A stretch of 64,000 bases of DNA from an uncultured Ignavibacteria bacterium. GTDB taxonomy: Bacteria > Zixibacteria > MSB-5A5 > RBG-16-43-9. Shown here in pieces: positions 4,320-59,710 of this stretch. The stretch is taken from NCBI GenBank assembly GCA_964570765.1, contig CAZMZF010000011.1, positions 3,629-67,628 of the forward strand, given 5' to 3'. The notes beneath the pieces are model-generated. The model saw only the letters and a program-made list of their open reading frames with translations. It was not told where the DNA came from and made no database searches. The stretch's first letter is position 1; each line of letters opens with the position of its first letter. Position numbers and translations under genes: made by a program.

Positions 4320-4553
4320 CTACTGATTCCCTATAATAATAAAGCCAAAATGTCGCCTAACTCGTTCATATCCGCAATTATTGCGTATATACCCCTGATT
4401 TTGGGGTTGTAGACGAACCTGTTTCGTTTATTCCGATTCTGGCTGAAGTTCCGATCCTACGGATCCGTTTCTCGGAGAAACGGATTTCACATCGTCTCTA
4501 CGAGCCGTAAGGCTTTTATCGGCCTGAGCCTCAGTCTGCCTAAGGCAGACAAA

Positions 4554-4640
4554 ATTGAATATATAAAGTGAACAGGGGTTGTCAATATAAATCCTAAAAT
4601 CAATGACGGATGACGAATTTCGAATAACGAATAAAAACAA
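4554..4640 (+). repeat. Family F composite repeat, full copy
   Basis: A roughly 87-bp element, 'attgaatatataaagtgaacaggggttgtcaatataaatcc...atgacggatgacgaatttcgaataacgaataaaaa'. It recurs at 1359 (partial) and as the reverse complement at 41959-42045. Confidence 0.8.
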
Positions 4641-4686
4641 AAGACTGCAGCCTTGCCACTCCCGTGCCAACGGAAGGTTGTCTTTT

Positions 4687-4782
4687 GTAGTTGCTCGATT
4701 CATCGAGCAAAAAGCCCAATGAATTGGGCAACTACTTTTAGCCTCGCCTTTGGGCGACCCTGAAAGGGTCGCACTACGAAAA
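4687..4782. repeat. Cluster of GC-rich palindromic elements (GTAG-REP family G plus family C hairpin)
   Basis: The outer stem is 'gtagttgc...gcaactac', enclosing the palindromes 'tcgattcatcga' and 'cccaatgaattggg'. It is followed by 'tagcctcgcctttgggcgaccctgaaagggtcgcactacgaa', the family C hairpin with a 3-nt loop. Confidence 0.75.
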
Positions 4783-4937
4783 TTCGTATTCCAGCCTTGC
4801 CCACTCCTAATTTGGACCACATGAAAGGCGGGATACGACTATTTTTATTGACTTCTCTTTCCTTGAGATTTAATTTAACTTTTTGATGGAATATTTATTA
4901 AGTCATTAGGATTTGATCTTTCAGACTGGAGGTTTCT

Positions 4938-8688: not shown

Positions 8689-9636
8689 ATGAGAGAAAAG
8701 AAGATCTTTGCAGGAACAGTTATATTTTTACTGTTACTTTCCTCAATTAGCTGGGGAACAAATTCGAAGGTTGGAACCACTGCTTATCCGTTCTTAAAAG
8801 TTGGTGTAGGAGCCAGGGCTTCTGCTCTGGGTGGTGCTTTTGTGGGTTTATCAGATGATGAGTCAGCCTTATATTTTAACCCGGCTGGTCTTTTGCAGTT
8901 GAAAGGCAATCATTTCATCACCTATTACAACAACTTTATTACTGATATTCAATCTGGCTTTGTGGGTTATATCCATCCCTATTCAGATAAAGTCAACTTA
9001 GGTTTATCTATAAACTATTTCAACTACGGCTCAATGGAGGAGACAGATAGTTCTGGCAAAAGCTTAGGGACTTTTGGAGCGGGGGATTTGTGTTTTGCCT
9101 TCTCCTATGCCAGAAATATTAAGCCCAGACTGGACTTGGGTGCAAATGTAAAATTCATCCTGGAAAATGAGAGCGCTCAGGGTCATTCCTCAGATGCCTT
9201 AGCTTTAGATTTAGGTGGATTTTATCAGCTCAAAGATGAGCGCACCAGATTTGGGGCAGTAGTTCAAAACTTAGGATTTCAGCTTAAAGGATTTACCTCA
9301 AGCCATAAAGACCCTTTGCCCACTATTGTAAAAGCAGGGATCTCACACAACTTAAAAGAGGTTCCTCTCCTGGTGGCAGGTGATGTGTCTTTACCCTTTG
9401 ATAATGATATCTACTTCAGTTTAGGAGGGGAGATAACCTATTTTAAGCCTCTTTTTTTAAGAATAGGTTGGAGCTCTTTTGGTGAAAATTTCAAGACTGG
9501 CTCAGATAAAGATAAATGGGCTGGGGTTTCTTTGGGTTTTGGAGTGCACTGGAGAAAATATAAATTCGATTATGCTTATTCCTCCTATGCAGATTTAGGA
9601 GGGATACACCGGATAACCATAGCCGGTGGGATATAA
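8689..9636 (+). CDS. Outer-membrane beta-barrel protein, PorV/PorQ/FadL-like
   Basis: It has a signal peptide, and the N-terminal motif 'GARASALGGAFVGLSDDESALYFNPAGL' is characteristic of the PorV/PorQ-type OMP family. Confidence 0.5.
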   Translation: MREKKIFAGTVIFLLLLSSISWGTNSKVGTTAYPFLKVGVGARASALGGAFVGLSDDESALYFNPAGLLQLKGNHFITYYNNFITDIQSGFVGYIHPYSDKVNLGLSINYFNYGSMEETDSSGKSLGTFGAGDLCFAFSYARNIKPRLDLGANVKFILENESAQGHSSDALALDLGGFYQLKDERTRFGAVVQNLGFQLKGFTSSHKDPLPTIVKAGISHNLKEVPLLVAGDVSLPFDNDIYFSLGGEITYFKPLFLRIGWSSFGENFKTGSDKDKWAGVSLGFGVHWRKYKFDYAYSSYADLGGIHRITIAGGI

Positions 9637-10079: not shown

Positions 10080-10571
10080 TTGATAAAAATTCCAGAAGGG
10101 GTGGATTTTAAAGATATTCCATTGGAGGAGAAATATAAAAGCGCAACCACCGGACTTTTACAAAGAGTTCATACTATTTATAAAGGGATTTATAAAAATT
10201 TTGGTCAGCAGGGATTAGACCTGATTAGAGAAGTAAGCGAAACCTACGGAAAGGAGATTGCGGAAAGGGGCAGGAAGAGGGTTAAACCGGGTGATGTGAA
10301 ATCCGCAGGGCTTTTTCTCATGCGGGTTTTTGATATGATTAACTGCGAGGGGGAGGTAACAGAATTTTCAGACGACAAAGTGGTCATTCGCCTTTTCAAA
10401 TGTCCCTACCCTTTTGACGACCCCAAAATATGCGAAGCGCATACCACAATGGAAAAGGCCCTAATAGAATCCTTAGGTGAAAACTTCTCTTATCACATCG
10501 CAGAATCTATTCCCGCAGGTGGCAGATTCTGCGAACATGTGATTAGCTTAAAAAGTAGGGACAGAACATAG
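10080..10571 (+). CDS. Hypothetical protein (probable TTG start)
   Basis: A 163-aa ORF with several Cys/His residues ('KCPYPFDDPKICEAH') and no confident family assignment. A terminator follows it. Confidence 0.4.
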   Translation: MIKIPEGVDFKDIPLEEKYKSATTGLLQRVHTIYKGIYKNFGQQGLDLIREVSETYGKEIAERGRKRVKPGDVKSAGLFLMRVFDMINCEGEVTEFSDDKVVIRLFKCPYPFDDPKICEAHTTMEKALIESLGENFSYHIAESIPAGGRFCEHVISLKSRDRT

Positions 10572-10592
10572 TTCTGTCCTGTTTTATTTTTT
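10558..10592 (+). terminator. Rho-independent terminator
   Basis: Hairpin 'gggacagaacatagttctgtcc' followed by 'tgttttatttttt'. Confidence 0.7.
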
Positions 10593-10600
10593 AGTGTAAA

Positions 10601-10735
10601 AAACGTACAGTCGGGCTTTATGCCCGACGGGTGGCTGGTCGTAGGGCGAACCTTTCAGGTTCGCAATGCGAGGCTCAAAGCCTCGCGCTACGAAATTCAG
10701 AAAGCGGGAGGGGACAAGCCCCTCCCCTACGAAAA
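10601..10735. repeat. Tandem array of four GC-rich hairpins
   Basis: The four hairpins are 'gtcgggctttatgcccgac', 'ggcgaacctttcaggttcgc', 'gcgaggctcaaagcctcgc' and 'ggaggggacaagcccctcc'. The first resembles 'atcgggttttatgcccgat' at 1222. Confidence 0.65.
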
Positions 10736-17129: not shown

Positions 17130-17165
17130 TTTTTCTCATCTACTTAAAACTTAAGTGAAAGTTTT

Positions 17166-17248
17166 GCGGAAGTGGTGGAATTGGCAGACACGCTATCTTG
17201 AGGGGGTAGTGGGGTGACCCGTGGGGGTTCAAGTCCCCCCTTCCGCAG
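17166..17248 (+). tRNA. tRNA-Leu (anticodon GAG), long variable arm
   Basis: Hand-folded: acceptor 'gcggaag/cttccgc', D-arm 'gtgg..aattggcaga..cac', anticodon loop 'cttgagg' (GAG), a long variable arm, and T-arm 'ggggg ttcaagt ccccc'. Confidence 0.8.
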
Positions 17249-20521: not shown

Positions 20522-21109
20522 TTAATAATTCCTCTCGATCAGATCACAGACTATATGCCCGATAAGAAGATGCACTTCTTGAATCCTCTGGGTCTCAGAA
20601 GAGGGGACAATAATTGAGTAATCCACAATTCGGCTCATCTCTCCCCCTTTTTTACCGGATAAGGCTAAAGTTTTCATTCCGATTTTCCTGGCAGTCTTTA
20701 TGGCTAAATTCACATTAGAGGATTCACCGGAGGTGCTTAAAGCTAAAAGACAATCTCCTTTCTTACCTAAAGCTTCTACCTGGCGGGAAAAAACCTTTTC
20801 AAATCCAAAATCATTTGAGGCTGCAGTTAAGATTGAAGGATTAACTGTAAGGGCAATAGCTGGTAGTGCCTTTCTTTTTGAATCAGACCTTAATCTTACT
20901 ACTAATTCTCCGGCAATATGCTGAGCATCTGCCGCAGAACCACCATTCCCGCAGAGTAAAATCTTTCCACCTTTTTTAAAACAATCATTCAAAATATCTG
21001 CCAGCTTTACAATCTTTTCTGAAAACTCCGATTTAATTTTTTCCTCTAAAGCAATACTCTCCTCAATCTGAGCCTGGACCATTGAAATTTGTTTTGATTT
21101 CTTAGTCAT
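20522..21109 (-). CDS. gmhA: D-sedoheptulose-7-phosphate isomerase (SIS domain)
   Basis: Contains 'LLCGNGGSAADAQHIAGEL' and 'ALSTSGESSNV', the GmhA signatures. Confidence 0.8.
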   Translation of the reverse strand: MTKKSKQISMVQAQIEESIALEEKIKSEFSEKIVKLADILNDCFKKGGKILLCGNGGSAADAQHIAGELVVRLRSDSKRKALPAIALTVNPSILTAASNDFGFEKVFSRQVEALGKKGDCLLALSTSGESSNVNLAIKTARKIGMKTLALSGKKGGEMSRIVDYSIIVPSSETQRIQEVHLLIGHIVCDLIERNY

Positions 21110-21135
21110 AGTTTAGCTCTTTTTATCCAATTCTG

Positions 21136-21782
21136 TCAGACAGGAATGTCTGACTTACTTATAATGCATATTTTTCCACATAATATCTCTTCAAAATCAC
21201 CCCATTGATTTTCGTAAGATTTATCTTGAATATATTCAGGATTTTCCCGGTCATATTGCCATTGTAAAAGATTATACAAGATATATTGCCTGATAAGATT
21301 TAATTCGTTTTCATTTCTAATAACGTGTTCATAATAATTTCGTTGCCAAACAGAGATTCCAGGTGAGTTGTGAATAATATTAATTTGTTTAGTAACTGCA
21401 GATTTGAAAGAGCGTATAATAGTAGGCAATGAACCAATAACAGGTTTTCCGAACCGTTCAACTGGAGGGGCACGGCGCGCCGTGCCCCTACAATCTCGGT
21501 AATCATCACAATTCCGTGAAAATGATTGGGCATTACCATGAAAACATCTATCTTAACATCTTTTCTTAATCTTGCTGTTTTTCTCCATTCCTCTTCAACC
21601 ACATGACCATATTTATTTAACTTCATTACACCGTTAACTACCTTGCCAAAAATATATTCACTATTACGTGTACATATGGTTACAAAATACGCACCTGCCT
21701 GTGAATAATCATAATCCTTTAACCTGATTGAACGGCGGTGATATTTTTGGGGATTATATTTACTATCAGAAATTTTATCCAT
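21136..21782 (-). pseudogene. REP-associated tyrosine transposase (RAYT, IS200-like HuH Y1 transposase), frameshifted
   Basis: The N-terminal ORF carries 'YSQAGAYFVTICT' and the HuH motif 'MPNHFHGIV', then 'VGARRAVPLQ'. A second ORF in another frame carries 'SLPTIIRSFKSAVTKQIN...SVWQRNYYEHVIRNENELNLIRQYI', which includes the catalytic Tyr region. The frame break lies near 21450-21468. The gene is flanked by hairpins at 21133-21155 and 21825-21846. Confidence 0.7.
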
Positions 21783-21845
21783 AGAATTTCCTGATGTAGG
21801 GGCTTGATTTATCAAACCCTATTTGAGGCACGATGAATCGTGCCT

Positions 21846-22586
21846 CTACCTATGTATTGCCCTGGCAAAATCTTTTAAAATCTTATCATTCCCCTTTTCT
21901 TCTAAGGCATTCCCAATCACCACGAAGTTTGCCCCGGCTTTTACCTTAGCTTTAGCGGTTTCCGGGTCTCTTATTCCTCCGCCGATTATCAAAGGAACGG
22001 TGATAAATTTCTTCACCTCTTTTATCAAAGGATCAGGTACAGAACTCTCTGCCCCGGAGCCTGCATCCATAAAGATAAATTTCATCCCTAAATATTCTGC
22101 AGCAAGGGCATGAGCACAGGCAAGATCTGGCTTATTCGAAGGCAAGGGAAGGGTATCAGACATAAACTGAACCGAGGTCATCTTTCCGGATTCGATTAAC
22201 ATATATCCGGTCGGGATCGGTTCTAAACCAAATTCTTTTATCACCGGTGCGGCTTTCACCTGTTCGCCGATCAAAAGGTTTGGGTTTCTGCCGCTGATCA
22301 AGGAAAGAAACAAAACCGCATCTGCATATTTAGAGACCTGGTTGGCATTTCCTGGAAAGATTATTACCGGGAGTTTGACTTTCTCTTTTATCCTTTTAAT
22401 TGCCTCATCAAAATGGGTGGATAAAAGCAAGCTTGAGCCGACCAAGATTCCGTCTGCTCCCCCTTTCTCTGCCCGATAAGCTAATTCCGCAATCTCTTTG
22501 GGGCTTAACCTGTCCGGGTCCAATAGGACTAAGAAGCCTCCTTTTTTATCTTTGATAACCTTTAATAATCTCTGATAAACTTTCAA
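21846..22586 (-). CDS. Geranylgeranylglyceryl-phosphate synthase family protein (PcrB/GGGPS)
   Basis: 'GGADGILVGSS', 'FMDAGSGA' and 'PLIIGGGIRDPETAKA' are the (beta/alpha)8 GGGPS/PcrB signatures. Confidence 0.75.
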   Translation of the reverse strand: MKVYQRLLKVIKDKKGGFLVLLDPDRLSPKEIAELAYRAEKGGADGILVGSSLLLSTHFDEAIKRIKEKVKLPVIIFPGNANQVSKYADAVLFLSLISGRNPNLLIGEQVKAAPVIKEFGLEPIPTGYMLIESGKMTSVQFMSDTLPLPSNKPDLACAHALAAEYLGMKFIFMDAGSGAESSVPDPLIKEVKKFITVPLIIGGGIRDPETAKAKVKAGANFVVIGNALEEKGNDKILKDFARAIHR

Positions 22587-22636: not shown

Positions 22637-22715
22637 GTTCCCTCTCCCCTTGTGGGAGAGGGTTAGGGAGAGGGGTTCACCCTCCCCTAACCCCTCCCAT
22701 CAAGGGAGGGGAAGT
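22637..22715. repeat. Family D palindromic element (un-interrupted copy)
   Basis: 'ccctctccccttgtgggagagggttagggagaggggttcaccctcccctaacccctcccatcaagggaggggaagt'. Confidence 0.75.
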
Positions 22716-27751: not shown

Positions 27752-27856
27752 TTTATTTAACCTTTGGAATGCATTGACCGAGCCAATGCTTTTATTCTCT
27801 ATGGTGGTTCCTTTTATAGGGGCGTATTGCAATACGCCCCTACCGCTCTAAAATTT

Positions 27857-29570: not shown

Positions 29571-30158
29571 CTATTTTAACACCCCCTTCAGTAACGGAAT
29601 ATTCTTAATTAAATAATCTATTCCGGTTCCTAAAGTTAAAAGCATACTGATAAAGACTAAAAGGTCAAATATCTTAAAAACCATCGGGCTGGTGAAAATA
29701 CTCCAGTTATACCCTAAGGGAACCAGGGTAGTTTTCAAATTGGTGAAGATTAAGATTATGCTAATAACTAACATCTGAGAGAAGGTCTTCACCTGTGCCA
29801 GAATAGTAGGCATAATCACCATCCCTTTGTAAGCGGCTAAGCTCCGCAGTCCGGTAATAAAAAACTCCCTGACGATTATCACCAAAATCATCCAGGCTTT
29901 AACGTAACCTAAAGCCACAAAAGAGATAAAAGCAGTTGAGACCAGGATTTTATCAGCTAAGGGATCCATAAACTTCCCGAAACCGGTTACCACACCATAT
30001 TTTCTGGCAATATACCCATCATAAAGATCAGTTAATGCCGCAAATAAGAATATAAGAGTGGCAAAATAGCGGGAATAGACATTGTTTACCAGAAAGAAGA
30101 CCATAAAGACCGGGGAAAGCAAAATCCGGGCTAAGGTAAGTTTATTAGGCAAGTTCAT
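29571..30158 (-). CDS. pgsA: CDP-diacylglycerol--glycerol-3-phosphate 3-phosphatidyltransferase
   Basis: CDP-alcohol phosphatidyltransferase motif 'DLYDGYIARK...G...DPLADK'. Confidence 0.85.
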   Translation of the reverse strand: MNLPNKLTLARILLSPVFMVFFLVNNVYSRYFATLIFLFAALTDLYDGYIARKYGVVTGFGKFMDPLADKILVSTAFISFVALGYVKAWMILVIIVREFFITGLRSLAAYKGMVIMPTILAQVKTFSQMLVISIILIFTNLKTTLVPLGYNWSIFTSPMVFKIFDLLVFISMLLTLGTGIDYLIKNIPLLKGVLK

Positions 30159-30464
30159 CTTCCAATCCTTAATGTTCCGTTTTCACAAAGTCATTGCAAG
30201 GAGGTCATTTGACCGACGAAGCAATCCACCTAAAATTAAAAGGATTGCTTAGCTGAATTCCTTCCATCTTAATCAGACTCAAAATCGGCTTCGTAAATTT
30301 AACCTTCTAAAAGTTATCAGTCAATAAAAAACGAATATAGGGGAATAATCCGCTTGAGGTGGATTCTGTCCCTATTATTCTAACGACCTTGGAAGGATTA
30401 CCCTGCAAAAGGATAATGCAGCTGAAAGGTTTCAACCTTCTAAAAAAACTTTACGGGGTTCAAA

Positions 30465-30486
30465 ATTTTGAACCCCTACCATAATG
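30465..30486. terminator. Palindromic hairpin, probable terminator of the PAP2 gene
   Basis: 'ggggttcaaaattttgaacccc' is a perfect palindrome with flanking A/T runs, just 3' of the minus-strand PAP2 gene. Confidence 0.6.
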
Positions 30487-30541
30487 GTGATTTAAAAACT
30501 TTCTCTTCATTTAAATTTCTGGACAGAACAACATCCTGTAC

Positions 30542-31120
30542 CTACGTTTTTTGTTGACCGAAAAGGGTTATACCTGGAAACATTACTTTGACAATTAGCA
30601 ACGCCAGAACCCCCCACAAAATCCCATAAAAAGCCCCGCATAGAACATCAAAAGGATAATGCACTCCCACATAGATGCGGGAGAAAGAAACTAAAAGTGC
30701 AATAGATAGCCAGATAATCCAGACCCTCCTGTAAAAAAAAGTCAGAATTGTACCAGCTCCGAAGATATTAGCCGCATGAGAGGAGGGGAAGGAGCCGGAG
30801 TGGGAACATCCGGTTAAAAGATGAACTTCTGAAAAAACATTGCAGGGTCTGACTCTGCCAATCCAGGATTTGAGCCAGAAATTTACCGTGGCATCAGTTA
30901 TACCCAGGATTATCAAAATTAAAATCGCTACTATTCTGTCTTTTTTCTTTCCAAAGATAAGCATGGCCAGAATAATCAAGAAAAATGGAATTCTCCAGTA
31001 TTTAAACTCAGTTAAAATTGGCATCAAGAAGTCGAAAAAGCCATTTTGTAGTTTCAGGTTGATAAAGAGAAAAAGCTCTTTATCTAGTTTGATTATGAAA
31101 TTTAAAAGTTCAGCAACCAT
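30542..31120 (-). CDS. PAP2-family phosphatase (membrane)
   Basis: The PAP2 motifs 'KSWIGRVRP', 'PSSHA' and 'SRIYVGVHYPFDV' are all present. Confidence 0.7.
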   Translation of the reverse strand: MVAELLNFIIKLDKELFLFINLKLQNGFFDFLMPILTEFKYWRIPFFLIILAMLIFGKKKDRIVAILILIILGITDATVNFWLKSWIGRVRPCNVFSEVHLLTGCSHSGSFPSSHAANIFGAGTILTFFYRRVWIIWLSIALLVSFSRIYVGVHYPFDVLCGAFYGILWGVLALLIVKVMFPGITLFGQQKT

Positions 31121-41517: not shown

Positions 41518-41842
41518 GACTATATCTTCTAATGCAAAGCTTCAACAAAGTTAATAAATAATTTGGGAAAAGGAAAGAAAAAAATCATTCACAGCAGATA
41601 AAACTGATTAAGCTGATTTTTCGAGCGGATTATCTGCTTAATTAAACTAATCAGCTGTGAGGAATTTTTAGTTATAGGGAGGGGCTTGTTCCCTCCCGAA
41701 ATTTGGGAGTTCCCAAGGAACTCCACTACAAAACTTGTTGTCACATTGTAGTTACCCAATTCATTGGGTAATTTATTTTCGGTAGGTCGGACATTCCTAT
41801 CTGACCCTGGCGAACAGACAAGAATGTCTGTTCTACCAGTTT

Positions 41843-41935
41843 TTGCTCGATGAATTGAGCAACTACAAAACATCCATCCGTTGCCATCCTAGAAACGGAG
41901 ACTACGTCTGGCGTAGCCACCGTAGTCTAGGACAG
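41843..41935. repeat. Reverse-orientation copies of GTAG-REP families G and B
   Basis: 'ttgctcgatgaattgagcaactac' is followed by 'cggagactacgtctggcgtagccaccgtag', the reverse complement of 'ctacggtggctacgccagacgtagtctccg'. Confidence 0.75.
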
Positions 41936-42045: not shown

Positions 42046-42293
42046 CTTCAATAAATCGCCTAACCCCGCTTAGGCGGGGGCGGAGGAACCATAAAATTCT
42101 AGGGCGAATTTTTCCTAAATGGGAGATAGGGTTAACTCTTGACCCGAGCCTTTAAGCTAACTCCGCAGGCGTAAAGAGAGGAGTGAAGATCTGAATAGTA
42201 TAGACCACTGGGTTTTCATTGGTCTTTTTTCTTTGATTATATTTTTTCATTGTAGTTGTCTAATTTATGGGGCTATTTAAACTGCTGGAATTG

Positions 42294-42356
42294 AGGACAG
42301 AATCCGCCTGAGGCGGATTCTGTCCCTACAGAGCTCCGATGAATCGAGCAACTACC
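42294..42356. repeat. Perfect hairpin (family I) plus a family G REP
   Basis: 'ggacagaatccgcctgaggcggattctgtcc' is a 14-bp stem (family I is also at 30349-30374). It is followed by 'gagctccgatgaatcgagcaactacc'. Confidence 0.75.
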
Positions 42357-42376: not shown

Positions 42377-43942
42377 ATGGAGCAGGTTCAGACAAAAGAA
42401 AAAATAGAGCTTCGACGGGATGTTTCGGTCTGGGGTTCATTTACCTGGGGATATGCGGATGTGGGCGCAGATATCTATGTGGCATTAGGCCTGGTTATGG
42501 CTTATGCGCAAGGGGCTGCCAGCCTGGTCTTTGCCTTAGCCGGGATTGTTTATATAATGATCGGGCTTGCCTATACTGAGCTTGCCTCCGCCTATCCTGT
42601 AGCAGGAGGAGGTCCTTACTTCACCTTAAGAGGCTTAGGGGATTTCTGGGGATTTGTAGGGGGATCAGCTCTGCTTTTAGATTACACCATAGATATTGCT
42701 CTCTTCGCAGTTGGTTCAGCCGGTTATATTAACTTTTTTATGCCTTATCTGCTGGGAAGAAGTATTGAGAGTTTCGCCATCACTTTAGGTCCACTGCATA
42801 ATATAAACCCGGTCTGGTGTCTGGAAACCCTTGTCCTCATTGGGATTTTGATCCTGGTAAATATTAGGGGTATAAGGGAATCATCCCTTTTGAATTCGAT
42901 AATAGGAGCAGTTGATCTTTTAGCTGAAGGGAGTATCATAATTTTTGGCTTTCTGTTTGCCTGGAAGCCTGAACTTCTTGCCCATCAATGGCATACTCAG
43001 TTCCCAACGCTACATAATTTTATGTATGGCTCTTCTCTGGCAATCATCTCCTTTGTCGGTTTAGAGTCGATCTCTCAGGCAGCTCAGGAAACCAAAAGGC
43101 CAGCTACTATAATCCCTCGCACTTCTCTAACTTTAATCTTGACCGTCTTCATCTTCGCAGTATCCTTCTCTACTCTGGGTTTAGGAGTATTGCCCTGGCA
43201 GGTTTTTGCAGACCATATAGGGGATCCTGTGGCTAAACTTGCCAGCACTATTCCATATATCGGATTAATCGCTGGACCTTTTGCTGCCATCTTAGGTGCT
43301 ACTATCCTTTTTATCTCTTCCAATGCTGGAGTTATGGGAGCCTCAAGGTTAACTTATTCTTTGAGCCAGTTCGGGATAATCAGTCCCTGGTTTTATTCAG
43401 TTCATCCGAAATTTCACACCCCGGTGAGGACTATAGTTATTTTTTCTATGGTCGCAGTGCTCCAAACTATTTTATCGTTTCTAACTCCTAAAGCTATGGA
43501 TACTTTAGGGAATATGTATGCCTTCGGTGCTACCTTAGGGTACACTTTAGTCTTTATCGCTTTGATAAAACTCAGGTTCTCAGATCCTTACACTCCCAGA
43601 CCTTATAAGATGCCTCTAAATTTAAAATTAAATTATAAGGGAAGAAAAGTCTATTTTCCTATACTTGGAGTTATCGGGATGTTAGGCGTGGCTACTATTC
43701 TTTTTGAGGTAATCCTGACTCATACTATTGGAAGAATAGCAGGCCCTTCCTGGGTTTTATTGTGTTTTATCTATTATGCCTGGTATAGGAAAAAAGAAGG
43801 ACTTCCCCTATTTAAAAGCATCAAACATAACTGGGAGAAAGAGCAGATAGAGGTTTTAACCTCAGCCGAAGAATTTGATTCATTAGAACAGTATAAGAAT
43901 GCTTTGGCTGAAAGGGATAAAAAGAGAATGGGGATAAAATGA
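42377..43942 (+). CDS. APC-superfamily permease (amino-acid/cation transporter)
   Basis: A 521-aa protein with about 12 TM helices. The 'GSFTWGYADVGADIYVALG' N-terminal segment is typical of the AA_permease_2 family. Confidence 0.8.
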   Translation: MEQVQTKEKIELRRDVSVWGSFTWGYADVGADIYVALGLVMAYAQGAASLVFALAGIVYIMIGLAYTELASAYPVAGGGPYFTLRGLGDFWGFVGGSALLLDYTIDIALFAVGSAGYINFFMPYLLGRSIESFAITLGPLHNINPVWCLETLVLIGILILVNIRGIRESSLLNSIIGAVDLLAEGSIIIFGFLFAWKPELLAHQWHTQFPTLHNFMYGSSLAIISFVGLESISQAAQETKRPATIIPRTSLTLILTVFIFAVSFSTLGLGVLPWQVFADHIGDPVAKLASTIPYIGLIAGPFAAILGATILFISSNAGVMGASRLTYSLSQFGIISPWFYSVHPKFHTPVRTIVIFSMVAVLQTILSFLTPKAMDTLGNMYAFGATLGYTLVFIALIKLRFSDPYTPRPYKMPLNLKLNYKGRKVYFPILGVIGMLGVATILFEVILTHTIGRIAGPSWVLLCFIYYAWYRKKEGLPLFKSIKHNWEKEQIEVLTSAEEFDSLEQYKNALAERDKKRMGIK

Positions 43943-50084: not shown

Positions 50085-50126
50085 CCAGAATTAACCGTAG
50101 AGACGCATTGCAATGCGTCTCTACCC

Positions 50127-58279: not shown

Positions 58280-59710
58280 ATGGAAAAGGAATATAAGATG
58301 TTGATAGGGGACAAATGGGTCTCCGGGGAGAAATTTTTTGAGGTTAAAAACAAATACAATCAAGAGGTGATCGGAAAAGTTCCGGAAACAAATAAGGAAA
58401 ACTTTGAAAAAGCGGTTTTATCTTCGCTCGCAGGATTTAAAACCATATCAACTCTTCCAGCTCACCAGAGAGCAAAGATTTTACAGAATACCTCAGAGTT
58501 AATTGAGAAGAATAAGGAAGAGTTCACCCGGATAATCTGTCTGGAGGCTGGTAAAGCCTGGAAACATTCTTTAGTTGAGGTGGAAAGGTCTGTTCAGACC
58601 TTTAAGTTTGCCTCTGAAGAGGCAAAGGATATTTGTGGTCATACCGTTCCTTTAGATGCCTCAGTTGGGGGAGAGAAAAGGATTGGTTTTTTTATGAGGT
58701 TTCCAGTAGGGGTGGTCGGAGCTATCTCCCCGTTCAATTTTCCCTTGAACTTAGTGGCGCATAAAGTTGCACCAGCCATTGCAGCTGGCTGTTCAGTAAT
58801 TTTAAAACCAGCCTCATTAACCCCTTTGACCTCGATAAAATTAGGGGAGATAATGCTGGAGGCAGGGCTATGCCCAGGTGGTTTGAACATAATCTTTGGC
58901 TCAGGAGGAACAGTAGGTGATTGGCTGGTTACCGATGAAAGGGTTTCTATGATAACTTTTACTGGAAGCCCGCCAGTGGGAAGAAGGATTAAAGAAAAAT
59001 CCGGGCTTAAAAAAGTTACCTTGGAGTTAGGCTCCAATTCTGCAGTGATAGTTGACCAGGATGCGGATTTAAACTTGGCTGTGGAAAGGTCTGTTATGGG
59101 AAGCTTTGCTTATGCCGGACAGATCTGCATATCGGTTCAGAGGATTTTTCTGCATAAGAAAATCTATGAAAAATTTAAAAAAGATTTCTTGGATAAAACC
59201 TCAAAGCTTAAATTGGGTGATCCCTTAGATAAGACAATAGATGTCGGACCGATGATCACAGAAGAAGATGCTAAGAGGACTGAATCCTGGGTAAATGAGG
59301 CTGTAAAAGAGGGAGCGAAAATTTTAATCGGAGGGAAAAGGGATGGGGCTTTCTTTTATCCAACTGTTTTAGAGAATGTCAAGCCGGAGATGAAAGTAAT
59401 GGTTTTGGAGGTCTTTGCCCCGGTGGTCTGCTTTTGCCAGTTTGAAGATTTTTCAGAGGCAGTCAAGATGGTGGACAATTCGATCTACGGGCTTCAGGCA
59501 GGGGTTTTTACAGATAATATCGAAAATGCATTTCAGGCTATCAAAGGGATAAAAGTTGGTGGAGTGATAATCAATGATGTGCCAACCTATAGAGCAGATA
59601 ATATGCCTTATGGCGGGGTTAAGGAAAGCGGGATCGGAAGAGAAGGGGTAAAATTTGCGATCGAGGAGATGACCGATATTAAAATGGTCTGCTTTAACTT
59701 GAGAAAATAA
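58280..59710 (+). CDS. NAD(P)-dependent aldehyde dehydrogenase family protein
   Basis: The ALDH catalytic motifs 'LELGSNSA' and 'GQICISVQR' (Cys nucleophile) are present. 476 aa. Confidence 0.9.
   Translation: MEKEYKMLIGDKWVSGEKFFEVKNKYNQEVIGKVPETNKENFEKAVLSSLAGFKTISTLPAHQRAKILQNTSELIEKNKEEFTRIICLEAGKAWKHSLVEVERSVQTFKFASEEAKDICGHTVPLDASVGGEKRIGFFMRFPVGVVGAISPFNFPLNLVAHKVAPAIAAGCSVILKPASLTPLTSIKLGEIMLEAGLCPGGLNIIFGSGGTVGDWLVTDERVSMITFTGSPPVGRRIKEKSGLKKVTLELGSNSAVIVDQDADLNLAVERSVMGSFAYAGQICISVQRIFLHKKIYEKFKKDFLDKTSKLKLGDPLDKTIDVGPMITEEDAKRTESWVNEAVKEGAKILIGGKRDGAFFYPTVLENVKPEMKVMVLEVFAPVVCFCQFEDFSEAVKMVDNSIYGLQAGVFTDNIENAFQAIKGIKVGGVIINDVPTYRADNMPYGGVKESGIGREGVKFAIEEMTDIKMVCFNLRK

Follow-up and report, generated by a model that had tools for sequence, protein, structure and literature searches.

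A probable REPtron in a Zixibacteria genome: a RAYT gene with an intragenic REP, frameshifted as assembled

Repetitive extragenic palindromes (REPs) of the GTAG superfamily are 20-35-nt stem-loops that carry a 5′ GTAG tag and lie next to genes for REP-associated tyrosine transposases (RAYTs, or TnpA_REP) (Di Nocera et al. 2013, PMC3733652). On single-stranded DNA the TnpA_REP enzyme binds REPs in their folded form and reads their GTAG foot; it cleaves by means of a tyrosine, after which the strands are rejoined (PMC3479197, PMC8266576). Short perfect palindromes make up a second REP group, which was studied together with its TnpA_REP by Corneloup et al. 2021 (PMC8266576). In the passages of Quentin et al. 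2018 (BMC Genomics 19:475, PMC6006769) that deal with subclass 2.4 of these enzymes, a REP is inserted inside the gene, between the HuH motif and the catalytic tyrosine (Y), with the frame left undisturbed; the REPs have a 'double foot' (5′ GT[AG]G ... C[TC]AC 3′), and the HuH-Y distance is longer and variable, with a median of 88 aa against 58-67 in most subclasses. The same passages describe the subclass as taxonomically scattered and abundant in Cyanobacteria and Bacteroidetes and map it onto RAYT Group 4 of Bertels et al. 2017, which the corresponding part of that paper reports from 17 classes, Cyanobacteria, Chlorobia and Caldilineae being those in which it is common (PMC5581495). Here we describe a minus-strand RAYT gene, with a palindrome inside it and hairpins on both sides, in a 64-kb stretch of contig CAZMZF010000011.1 (hereafter the window). 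RAYTs with an intragenic REP have already been published as subclass 2.4 (PMC6006769, in the passages cited), and the locus is a further example, in a Zixibacteria genome and frameshifted.

We read the locus, with a probability of roughly 0.85, as a 'REPtron': a RAYT of subclass 2.4 / Group 4, single-copy and fixed in the chromosome, with two REP hairpins upstream, one downstream and one inside the gene (Table 1). It resembles subclass 2.4, as far as the passages cited describe it, in its HUH and Tyr core, in a lengthened HUH-Tyr spacer (H89 and Y167 of the repaired protein are 78 residues apart), in a conserved N-terminal motif upstream of the core, in GT[AG]G REPs less than 1 kb from the gene, to some extent in double-foot REPs, in a REP placed between HuH and Y and in its occurrence across many phyla. 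The GT[AG]G REPs within ~1 kb are the 5′ flanking REP and the degenerate leader REP, to which a GTAA-footed hairpin on the 3′ side may be added. It differs in its host, Zixibacteria not being among the phyla named in those descriptions, in the 1-nt frameshift just upstream of the REP, and in the degenerate 3′ foot (CTCC) of the REP itself.

The original prediction, made from the sequence alone, had proposed a frameshifted RAYT with IS200/RAYT motifs, and the pair of frames was found: YSQAGAYFVT and MPNHFHGIV stand in one minus-strand open reading frame (ORF) and SLPTIIRSFKSAVTKQIN...VWQRNYYEHVIRNENELNLIRQYI in another. The upstream frame reads MDKISDSKYNPQKYHRRSIRLKDYDYSQAGAYFVT...MPNHFHGIVMITEIVGARRAVPLQ... 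and reaches a stop at 21300, and the downstream frame reads ...DCRGTARRAPPVERFGKPVIGSLPTIIRSFKSAVTKQIN...VWQRNYYEHVIRNENELNLIRQYILYN...KSDIPV up to its stop codon. A database search returned more than 8000 homologs of the RAYT protein at E <1e-5, several of them named by their source as 'REP element-mobilizing transposase RayT' or 'REP-associated tyrosine transposase' and many carrying a precomputed PF01797. Within the HUH motif (P85-N86-H87-F88-H89) the columns of P85, N86, H87 and H89 are invariant (alignments A1 and A3); so is Y167, and N171 nearly so (A3). A profile of 30 family members had a sole significant match in the PDB, E. coli TnpA_REP (4ER8, E=5.7e-6), and the alignment covers the HUH strand and the W-Q...E-H...R...Y...N segment; in this search the IS608 and ISDra2 TnpA structures gave no significant match. 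The profile alignment makes WQRNYYEH the counterpart of W94, Q95, E100 and H101 of the E. coli enzyme and sets N171 against its N119. The invariant or almost invariant residues W146, Q147, E152, H153 and R156 of VWQRNYYEHVIR match E. coli W94, Q95, E100, H101 and R104, the residues which contact the GTAG guide according to the relevant passage of PMC6006769. The sole NCBIfam model to match the RAYT protein is REP_Tyr_transpos (NF047646, E=1.2e-15), and this, with the match to 4ER8, places the protein closer to TnpA_REP than to IS200/IS605 TnpA; Y1_Tnp itself stays below threshold. In a Pfam search each half of the protein, taken alone, had no match.

The locus thus shares with E. coli TnpA_REP (YafM, 4ER8; Messing et al. 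2012, PMC3479197) the HUH motif, the W-Q, E-H and R residues and the catalytic Tyr, all of which align, and GTAG-footed REPs. The E. coli gene, in contrast, has no intragenic REP, and the similarity is weak when the single sequence is searched against the PDB (E=0.66), in an alignment that pairs Y167 with Y115. Moreover, the E. coli REPs are imperfect, bulged palindromes, whereas those of the window are short and perfect. Ton-Hoang et al. 2012 reportedly worked on the E. coli enzyme.

A tblastn search with the 30 family members found no second RAYT copy within the window. The nearest intact ortholog lies on a 2.4-kb ENA metagenome contig (L001), which served as the reference for the break site (alignment A2); here the PcrB-like gene, the RAYT and the downstream ORF follow in the same order at 92% nt identity, and the RAYT encodes an intact 226-aa protein. 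The comparison for single copy and vertical inheritance is limited to the window, with one RAYT in 64 kb and the same neighbours in L001. As regards the host, the RecA of the window is 87-95% identical to candidate division Zixibacteria RecA proteins, and the list of RAYT homologs includes proteins and contigs labelled Zixibacteria.

Table 1. Position of the RAYT gene, its motifs, its hairpins and its neighbours in the window
Feature	Position	Strand	Details	Basis
RAYT / TnpA_REP gene	21136..21782	-	ATG 21782, TGA 21136-21138; two frames as assembled; 215 aa when repaired	ORFs and three-frame translation
P-N-H-F-H codons, HUH metal-binding motif	21516..21530	-	upstream frame	sequence
Frameshift site	21494..21496	-	one G of ancestral GG gone, remaining G at 21495	DNA alignment with intact ortholog L001
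Intragenic REP	21464..21491	-	GTAGGGGCACGGCGCGCCGTGCCCCTCC; 28 nt, GTAG 5′ foot, degenerate 3′ foot CTCC	
WQRNYYEH codons	21325..21348	-	downstream frame	near-invariant columns and profile alignment to 4ER8
Predicted catalytic Tyr codon	21283..21285	-	Y167 of the repaired protein (RQ-Y-ILYN)	aligned with Y115 of E. coli TnpA_REP
5′ flanking REP	21826..21849	-	GTAGAGGCACGATTCATCGTGCCT; stem GGCACG related to intragenic REP	
Second, degenerate leader REP	21796..21822	-	ATAGGGTTTGATAAATCAAGCCCCTAC; 8-bp stem, CTAC 3′ foot	
3′ REP-like hairpin	21135..21158	-	GTAAGTCAGACATTCCTGTCTGAC; GTAA foot	
PcrB-like gene, upstream neighbour	21846..22586	-	adjacency to RAYT kept in L001	ORF list
Downstream neighbour, 195-aa ORF	20522..21109	-	start adjoining RAYT conserved in L001	

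The perfect 22-bp palindrome GGGGCACGGCGCGCCGTGCCCC had been predicted to encode a conserved GARRAVP segment of the protein. It is present (21467-21488) and forms the core of the intragenic REP, which on the gene strand is laid out as GTAG, the two arms GGGCACGGCG and CGCCGTGCCC, and CTCC, from 21491 down to 21464, between the HUH motif and the catalytic-Tyr helix. The coding claim did not hold. The native reading through the palindrome is CRGTARRAP, as in L001 and in the family consensus xRGTxxRAPT-xExFGKPVSGSLPTIIRSFKS, and GARRAVP arises from the shifted reading. The peptide ARRAVPLQ, put forward as a hallmark, fails in the same way for the window gene; other homologs, among them L026 with VGARRAVPLQ, do have this reading of the same DNA.

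The HUH-to-Tyr interval was extracted from 161 related loci in genomes and metagenomes, of which 151 yielded delimited, intact genes; the loci span Nitrospirota, Chloroflexota, Cyanobacteria, Zixibacteria, Calditrichota, Desulfobacterota and Atribacterota, among others. A GT[AG]G-footed hairpin (>=8 bp) stands between HUH and Tyr in 115/151 homologs, at a median of 42 nt past the Pro codon of PNH, and its 3′ foot is CTAC in 87 of these 115, CTAT in L001 and CTCC in the window. The GTAG is read in codon phase 0 by 64 homologs (V-G-A...P-L/Y, giving peptides of the type VGAR..VPL) and in phase 1 by 51 (x-R-G...A-P-T, giving xRGT..RAPT). No homolog reads it in phase 2, which is avoided because the TAG would become a stop. 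The outer GTAGGGGC...GCCCCTAC is near-constant across phyla and the centre falls into discrete types, in proteins that are only ~50% identical. One DNA element that is read in two phases as unrelated peptides shows that it is the nucleic acid, and not the peptide, which is constrained. As DNA the palindrome is a conserved intragenic REP, not a conserved peptide motif. The survey of 151 homologs thus finds the element in about three quarters of the genes, at a near-fixed position and in only two, TAG-avoiding, codon phases. Here an element conserved as DNA clearly determines a stretch of protein sequence, a phenomenon that is itself already published, and the element explains the odd GC-rich peptide (VGARRAVPL or CRGTARRAP) that gene callers will yield here.

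The window's exact REP core recurs in 7 other homolog genes, and pairs of genes that have the same core are more alike in both halves of the protein, the observed difference being reached in 0/1000 permutations. In other genomes a second copy of the exact intragenic core was found <=10 kb from the gene at 12 of the 52 loci listed, and several of the extra copies at these 12 loci lie directly beside the RAYT gene. This survey of core recurrence gives no clear support for a cloud of cognate REPs around RAYT genes. We consider it rather improbable that the intragenic REP is a maintained cis-element, for example an autoregulatory site that the RAYT itself binds or cleaves, or else the protected master copy of its cognate REP. 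The near-invariant outer arms, the two codon phases and the tracking of protein subfamily by core type would all fit such a role; shared ancestry could explain the association of core and subfamily equally well. If the cis-element reading were true, the 1-nt deletion 5 nt away could be the footprint of the enzyme acting on its own gene.

In the assembled window copy the Tyr and the HUH motif sit in different frames, and in 151/151 of the delimited homolog genes they share one frame. Pairwise DNA alignment with L001 places the missing G at 21495, where the window has CGAGATTG and L001 has CGAGGATTG; in the longer context (CGAGATTGTAGGGGC in the window, CGAGGATTGTAGGGGC in L001) this is the single gap in the region of the frame change. 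The original prediction had put the break at 21450-21468, which is 30-45 nt too far downstream. The lost base is the bracketed one in CGAG(G)ATTGTAGG; the GTAG foot at which the palindromic element begins is 5 nt downstream of it. In L001 the intragenic REP is in frame, and the disruption in the window is due to the separate 1-nt deletion upstream of it. No further disabling change was seen in the window RAYT when aligned with L001, so the lesion, if real, would be recent. As assembled, the window copy is predicted to be inactive, since the HUH half and the Tyr half are in different frames. The locus should thus be annotated as a subclass 2.4 RAYT that contains an intragenic REP and is either a pseudogene or mis-assembled.

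Hairpins had also been predicted to bracket the gene, and both are present. On the 5′ side the palindrome GAGGCACGATGAATCGTGCCTC occupies 21825-21846, and the TAG stop of the PcrB-like gene (21846-21848) is at the same time the TAG of the REP's GTAG foot. The leader, folded as single-stranded DNA, forms two tandem hairpins (-15.3 kcal/mol, z=-6.7). The stem-loop on the 3′ side, GTCAGACA-TTCC-TGTCTGAC at 21135-21154, takes up the TGA of the RAYT in its 3′ arm; a GTAG-footed relative of it lies at 41782-41805, and related copies also occur in L001. The three hairpins (intragenic, 5′ and 3′) all fold far better as single-stranded DNA than dinucleotide shuffles do, the set of z-scores being -6.7, -4.7 and -3.8.

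A descriptor scan (GT[AG]G, gap of 0-2 nt, perfect stem >=7, loop <=8) found 21 perfect hairpins with a GT[AG]G foot in the window; 30 dinucleotide shuffles gave 0.83 on average, so that the enrichment is ~25-fold. Together with the REP-like hairpins that flank the RAYT, this upholds the REP/RAYT system of the original prediction, and it records a REP/RAYT association in a Zixibacteria genome. On a simple ORF map 18/21 footed hairpins are extragenic; the three exceptions are the intragenic RAYT REP, a GTGG-footed hit at 58580 inside a gene, which may be a chance match, and the hairpin at 10555-10579, whose span overlaps ORF 10080-10571 at its 3′ end. Stem sequences vary widely: the ~20 copies in 64 kb fall into at least five stem/loop subfamilies. 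A dispersed family of GTAGTTGCTCGATKCATCGAGCA elements had been claimed, and as a strict pattern it shrank to 2 matches at <=3 mismatches. What survives is a looser pattern of five copies that includes the 5′ hairpin of the RAYT, this REP sharing its CGATTCATCG centre with copies at 4687, 4714, 41845 and 42334, and beyond it the broader GT[AG]G class. As in the GTAG REP superfamily (PMC3733652), the hairpins are mostly extragenic, often clustered in alternating orientation and sometimes inside genes; they differ from that superfamily in the unusual heterogeneity of their stems. A complete double-foot REP stands at 50097-50124. An extragenic REP at 27820-27843, GTAGGGGCGTATTGCAATACGCCC, is of the same type as those inside the RAYT genes of three homolog loci (L013, L014 and L072). 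No Rfam family covers the REP hairpins of the window, where the sole match was a c-di-AMP riboswitch.

By analogy with the enzymes of E. coli, S. maltophilia and Marinomonas, the RAYT protein would be of the HUH/Y1 type and act as both endonuclease and strand transferase on single-stranded DNA. It would bind folded REP hairpins on single-stranded DNA and read the GTAG foot through the W-Q...E-H...R cluster, and cleavage beside the hairpin by the Tyr, with the strands then rejoined, would cause REPs to spread and to be rearranged. The intragenic REP would, in intact relatives, be translated as a tolerated surface loop in phase 0 or 1, and the ~20 extragenic GTAG hairpins of the window would be the REP population on which such an enzyme acts. 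The gene had been proposed as the mobiliser of the window's repeats. The association of REPs and RAYT stands; as to mobilisation by this copy, which is broken and whose stems differ from those of the other REPs, we infer only that, prior to the deletion, the gene acted on the REPs of the window or produced them.

Several observations weigh against the reading of the locus as a REPtron of subclass 2.4. The NCBIfam REP_Tyr_transpos score of 57.7 bits lies below the cut-off of 80, which by the NCBI threshold makes the protein a relative and not an equivalog, and the repaired protein reaches 18 bits against a gathering cut-off of 23 for Pfam Y1_Tnp (PF01797). The gene fits TnpA_REP subclass 2.4 / RAYT Group 4 by the published features and by the taxa of its homologs, as distinct from the authors' own profiles. 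The GGCACG stem of the intragenic REP is found only in hairpins at the gene itself, the other REPs being different; one broken gene need not be the mobiliser of so heterogeneous a set, and there may be further RAYT copies outside the 64-kb window. The frameshift is seen in one assembly. To our knowledge, no activity has been shown for any member of subclass 2.4.

The broken frame is open to two explanations other than a genuine lesion. The gene may be intact in the organism and the missing G an error of assembly or polishing beside the GC-rich perfect palindrome, whose proximity keeps such an error plausible. The error would affect one base of a GG dinucleotide, with a hairpin-forming element of 28 nt lying 5 nt away, in a gene with no other disabling mutation, whose central 475 nt are ~98-99% identical to intact L001 and whose HUH and Tyr share one frame in 151/151 homologs. 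However, the remaining ORFs in the window are long and lie close together, unlike those of a generally indel-prone assembly, and for this reason we think it probable that the lesion is real and hold an error to be possible but doubtful. Moreover, transposase-like genes are commonly pseudogenised. The contig scans found no independent contig of the lineage for comparison: the exact pattern across the deletion site, with the base made optional, had no match in metagenome contigs, the protein-guided metagenome scan found no relatives above 65% identity, the best match of the genome scan was at 64%, and for P0055, the truncated product of the window gene, no contig is on record. The halves could also be joined through programmed -1 ribosomal frameshifting, in which the intragenic REP hairpin would act as downstream stimulator. 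A -1 slip after GAG reads GAT TGT AGG, which restores the ortholog's E-D-C-R-G exactly, and a strong hairpin begins 5 nt downstream. Inspection by eye, however, found no slippery heptamer of the form X XXY YYZ at or near the site, and the nearest ortholog and all 151 homologs are single-frame, which makes programmed frameshifting highly improbable.

The hairpins, too, can be accounted for otherwise. An autonomous IS200/IS605 insertion sequence (IS), with the flanking hairpins as IS ends rather than REPs, would have in common with the locus its HUH/Y1 chemistry, an enzyme that recognises single-stranded DNA hairpins, and a sub-terminal hairpin on either side. Yet the family profile matches TnpA_REP and neither of the IS200/IS605 TnpA structures (IS608, ISDra2), the gene is present in one copy in the window and no tnpB-sized ORF was found adjoining it, the same neighbouring genes are found in a relative of 92% nt identity, and the hairpins on its two sides are members of dispersed GTAG families, which are found without a gene as well. 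Therefore, we regard an insertion sequence as very unlikely. The least credible account takes the palindrome as a protein-level motif whose palindromic DNA is incidental. The peptide xRGTxxRAPT does stand in the family consensus, but the account is refuted by the reading of GTAGGGGC...GCCCCTAC in two phases, as unrelated peptides, by 64 and 51 homologs. The same palindromes, furthermore, occur outside genes, for example at 27820-27843, and the interpretation published in the passages cited is REP insertion (PMC6006769).

Comparison with close relatives bears on the age of the REPs. At ~2190-2310 of L001 (A2 columns 733-836) there are two REP-like hairpins that are absent from the window; their GTGG feet are antisense to the gene. 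The first, 33 nt inserted in frame, extends the C-terminus of the RAYT by 11 codons, and the second is a 27-nt insertion just past the stop codon; they are REP presence/absence polymorphisms between close relatives. In a related contig whose RecA is 95% identical (L082), the REP of 27820-27843 is found at the orthologous site (~9335-9362), where a single substitution at its centre makes the palindrome imperfect, and the REP-containing spacer 30158-30542 is largely different. With one REP kept and that spacer and the L001 REPs differing, the REPs of this lineage are in part old and in part turning over.

The RAYT gene itself varies unevenly along its length. Between the window and L001 the first 100 nt are ~80% identical and the next 475 nt ~98-99%. 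A 947-bp contig of the Joint Genome Institute (JGI; P0003), compared with window 21136-21848, has near-identical N- and C-termini and a central part from a different subfamily; its centre includes VGARFIVPY-NKEGFDKSNPYIR, a stretch similar to the 5′ REP and leader of the window gene. P0003 and the identity step in L001 (A2 columns 120-225) suggest that RAYT genes are mosaic through recombination or cassette exchange. In many homologs the terminal extensions, as called, resemble translated flanking REPs (N-termini of P0008, P0009, P0016 and P0065, C-termini of P0012, P0080 and P0065), with peptides such as VGARCNVPL, EGAHTGVPLQ, RGEPCVRP and similar. Gene callers appear routinely to extend RAYT ORFs into the flanking REPs.

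Further features of the window are noted here. The 195-aa ORF downstream of the RAYT we take, by eye, to be sugar-isomerase (SIS/GmhA)-like. BIME-like (bacterial interspersed mosaic element) clusters of 3-6 GTAG REPs, of mixed subfamilies and alternating orientation, lie at 4687-4777, 10555-10730 and 41677-41866, where the alternation runs onward to 42356, and mechanical ORF calling yields spurious ORFs across such clusters, e.g. 4428-4820 and 41589-41873 (minus strand). The double-foot REP at 27820-27843 (GTAGGGGCGTATTGCAATACGCCCCTA) sits between CinA-like and LigT-like genes. Between the PcrB-like and AlaRS genes, at 22640-22711, the G/C-rich hairpins CCCTCTCCCC..GGGAGAGGG and CCCCTCCC..GGGAGGGG form a larger inverted repeat without a GTAG foot and resemble the GGGAGGGG-stem REP at 10706-10730. 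The c-di-AMP riboswitch aptamer (RF00379, 79.5 bits) lies at 42047-42185 (plus strand), upstream of a gene starting at 42377, and is followed by a terminator-like hairpin with a T-run (~42203-42232) and by two GTAG REPs (42295-42356) before the start codon. The 15-bp hairpin at 42295-42325 was considered as the riboswitch terminator and rejected, as the hairpin and T-run at ~42203-42232 fill that role. Lastly, the sole tRNA gene of the window is a tRNA-Leu (GAG) at 17165-17248 (plus strand).

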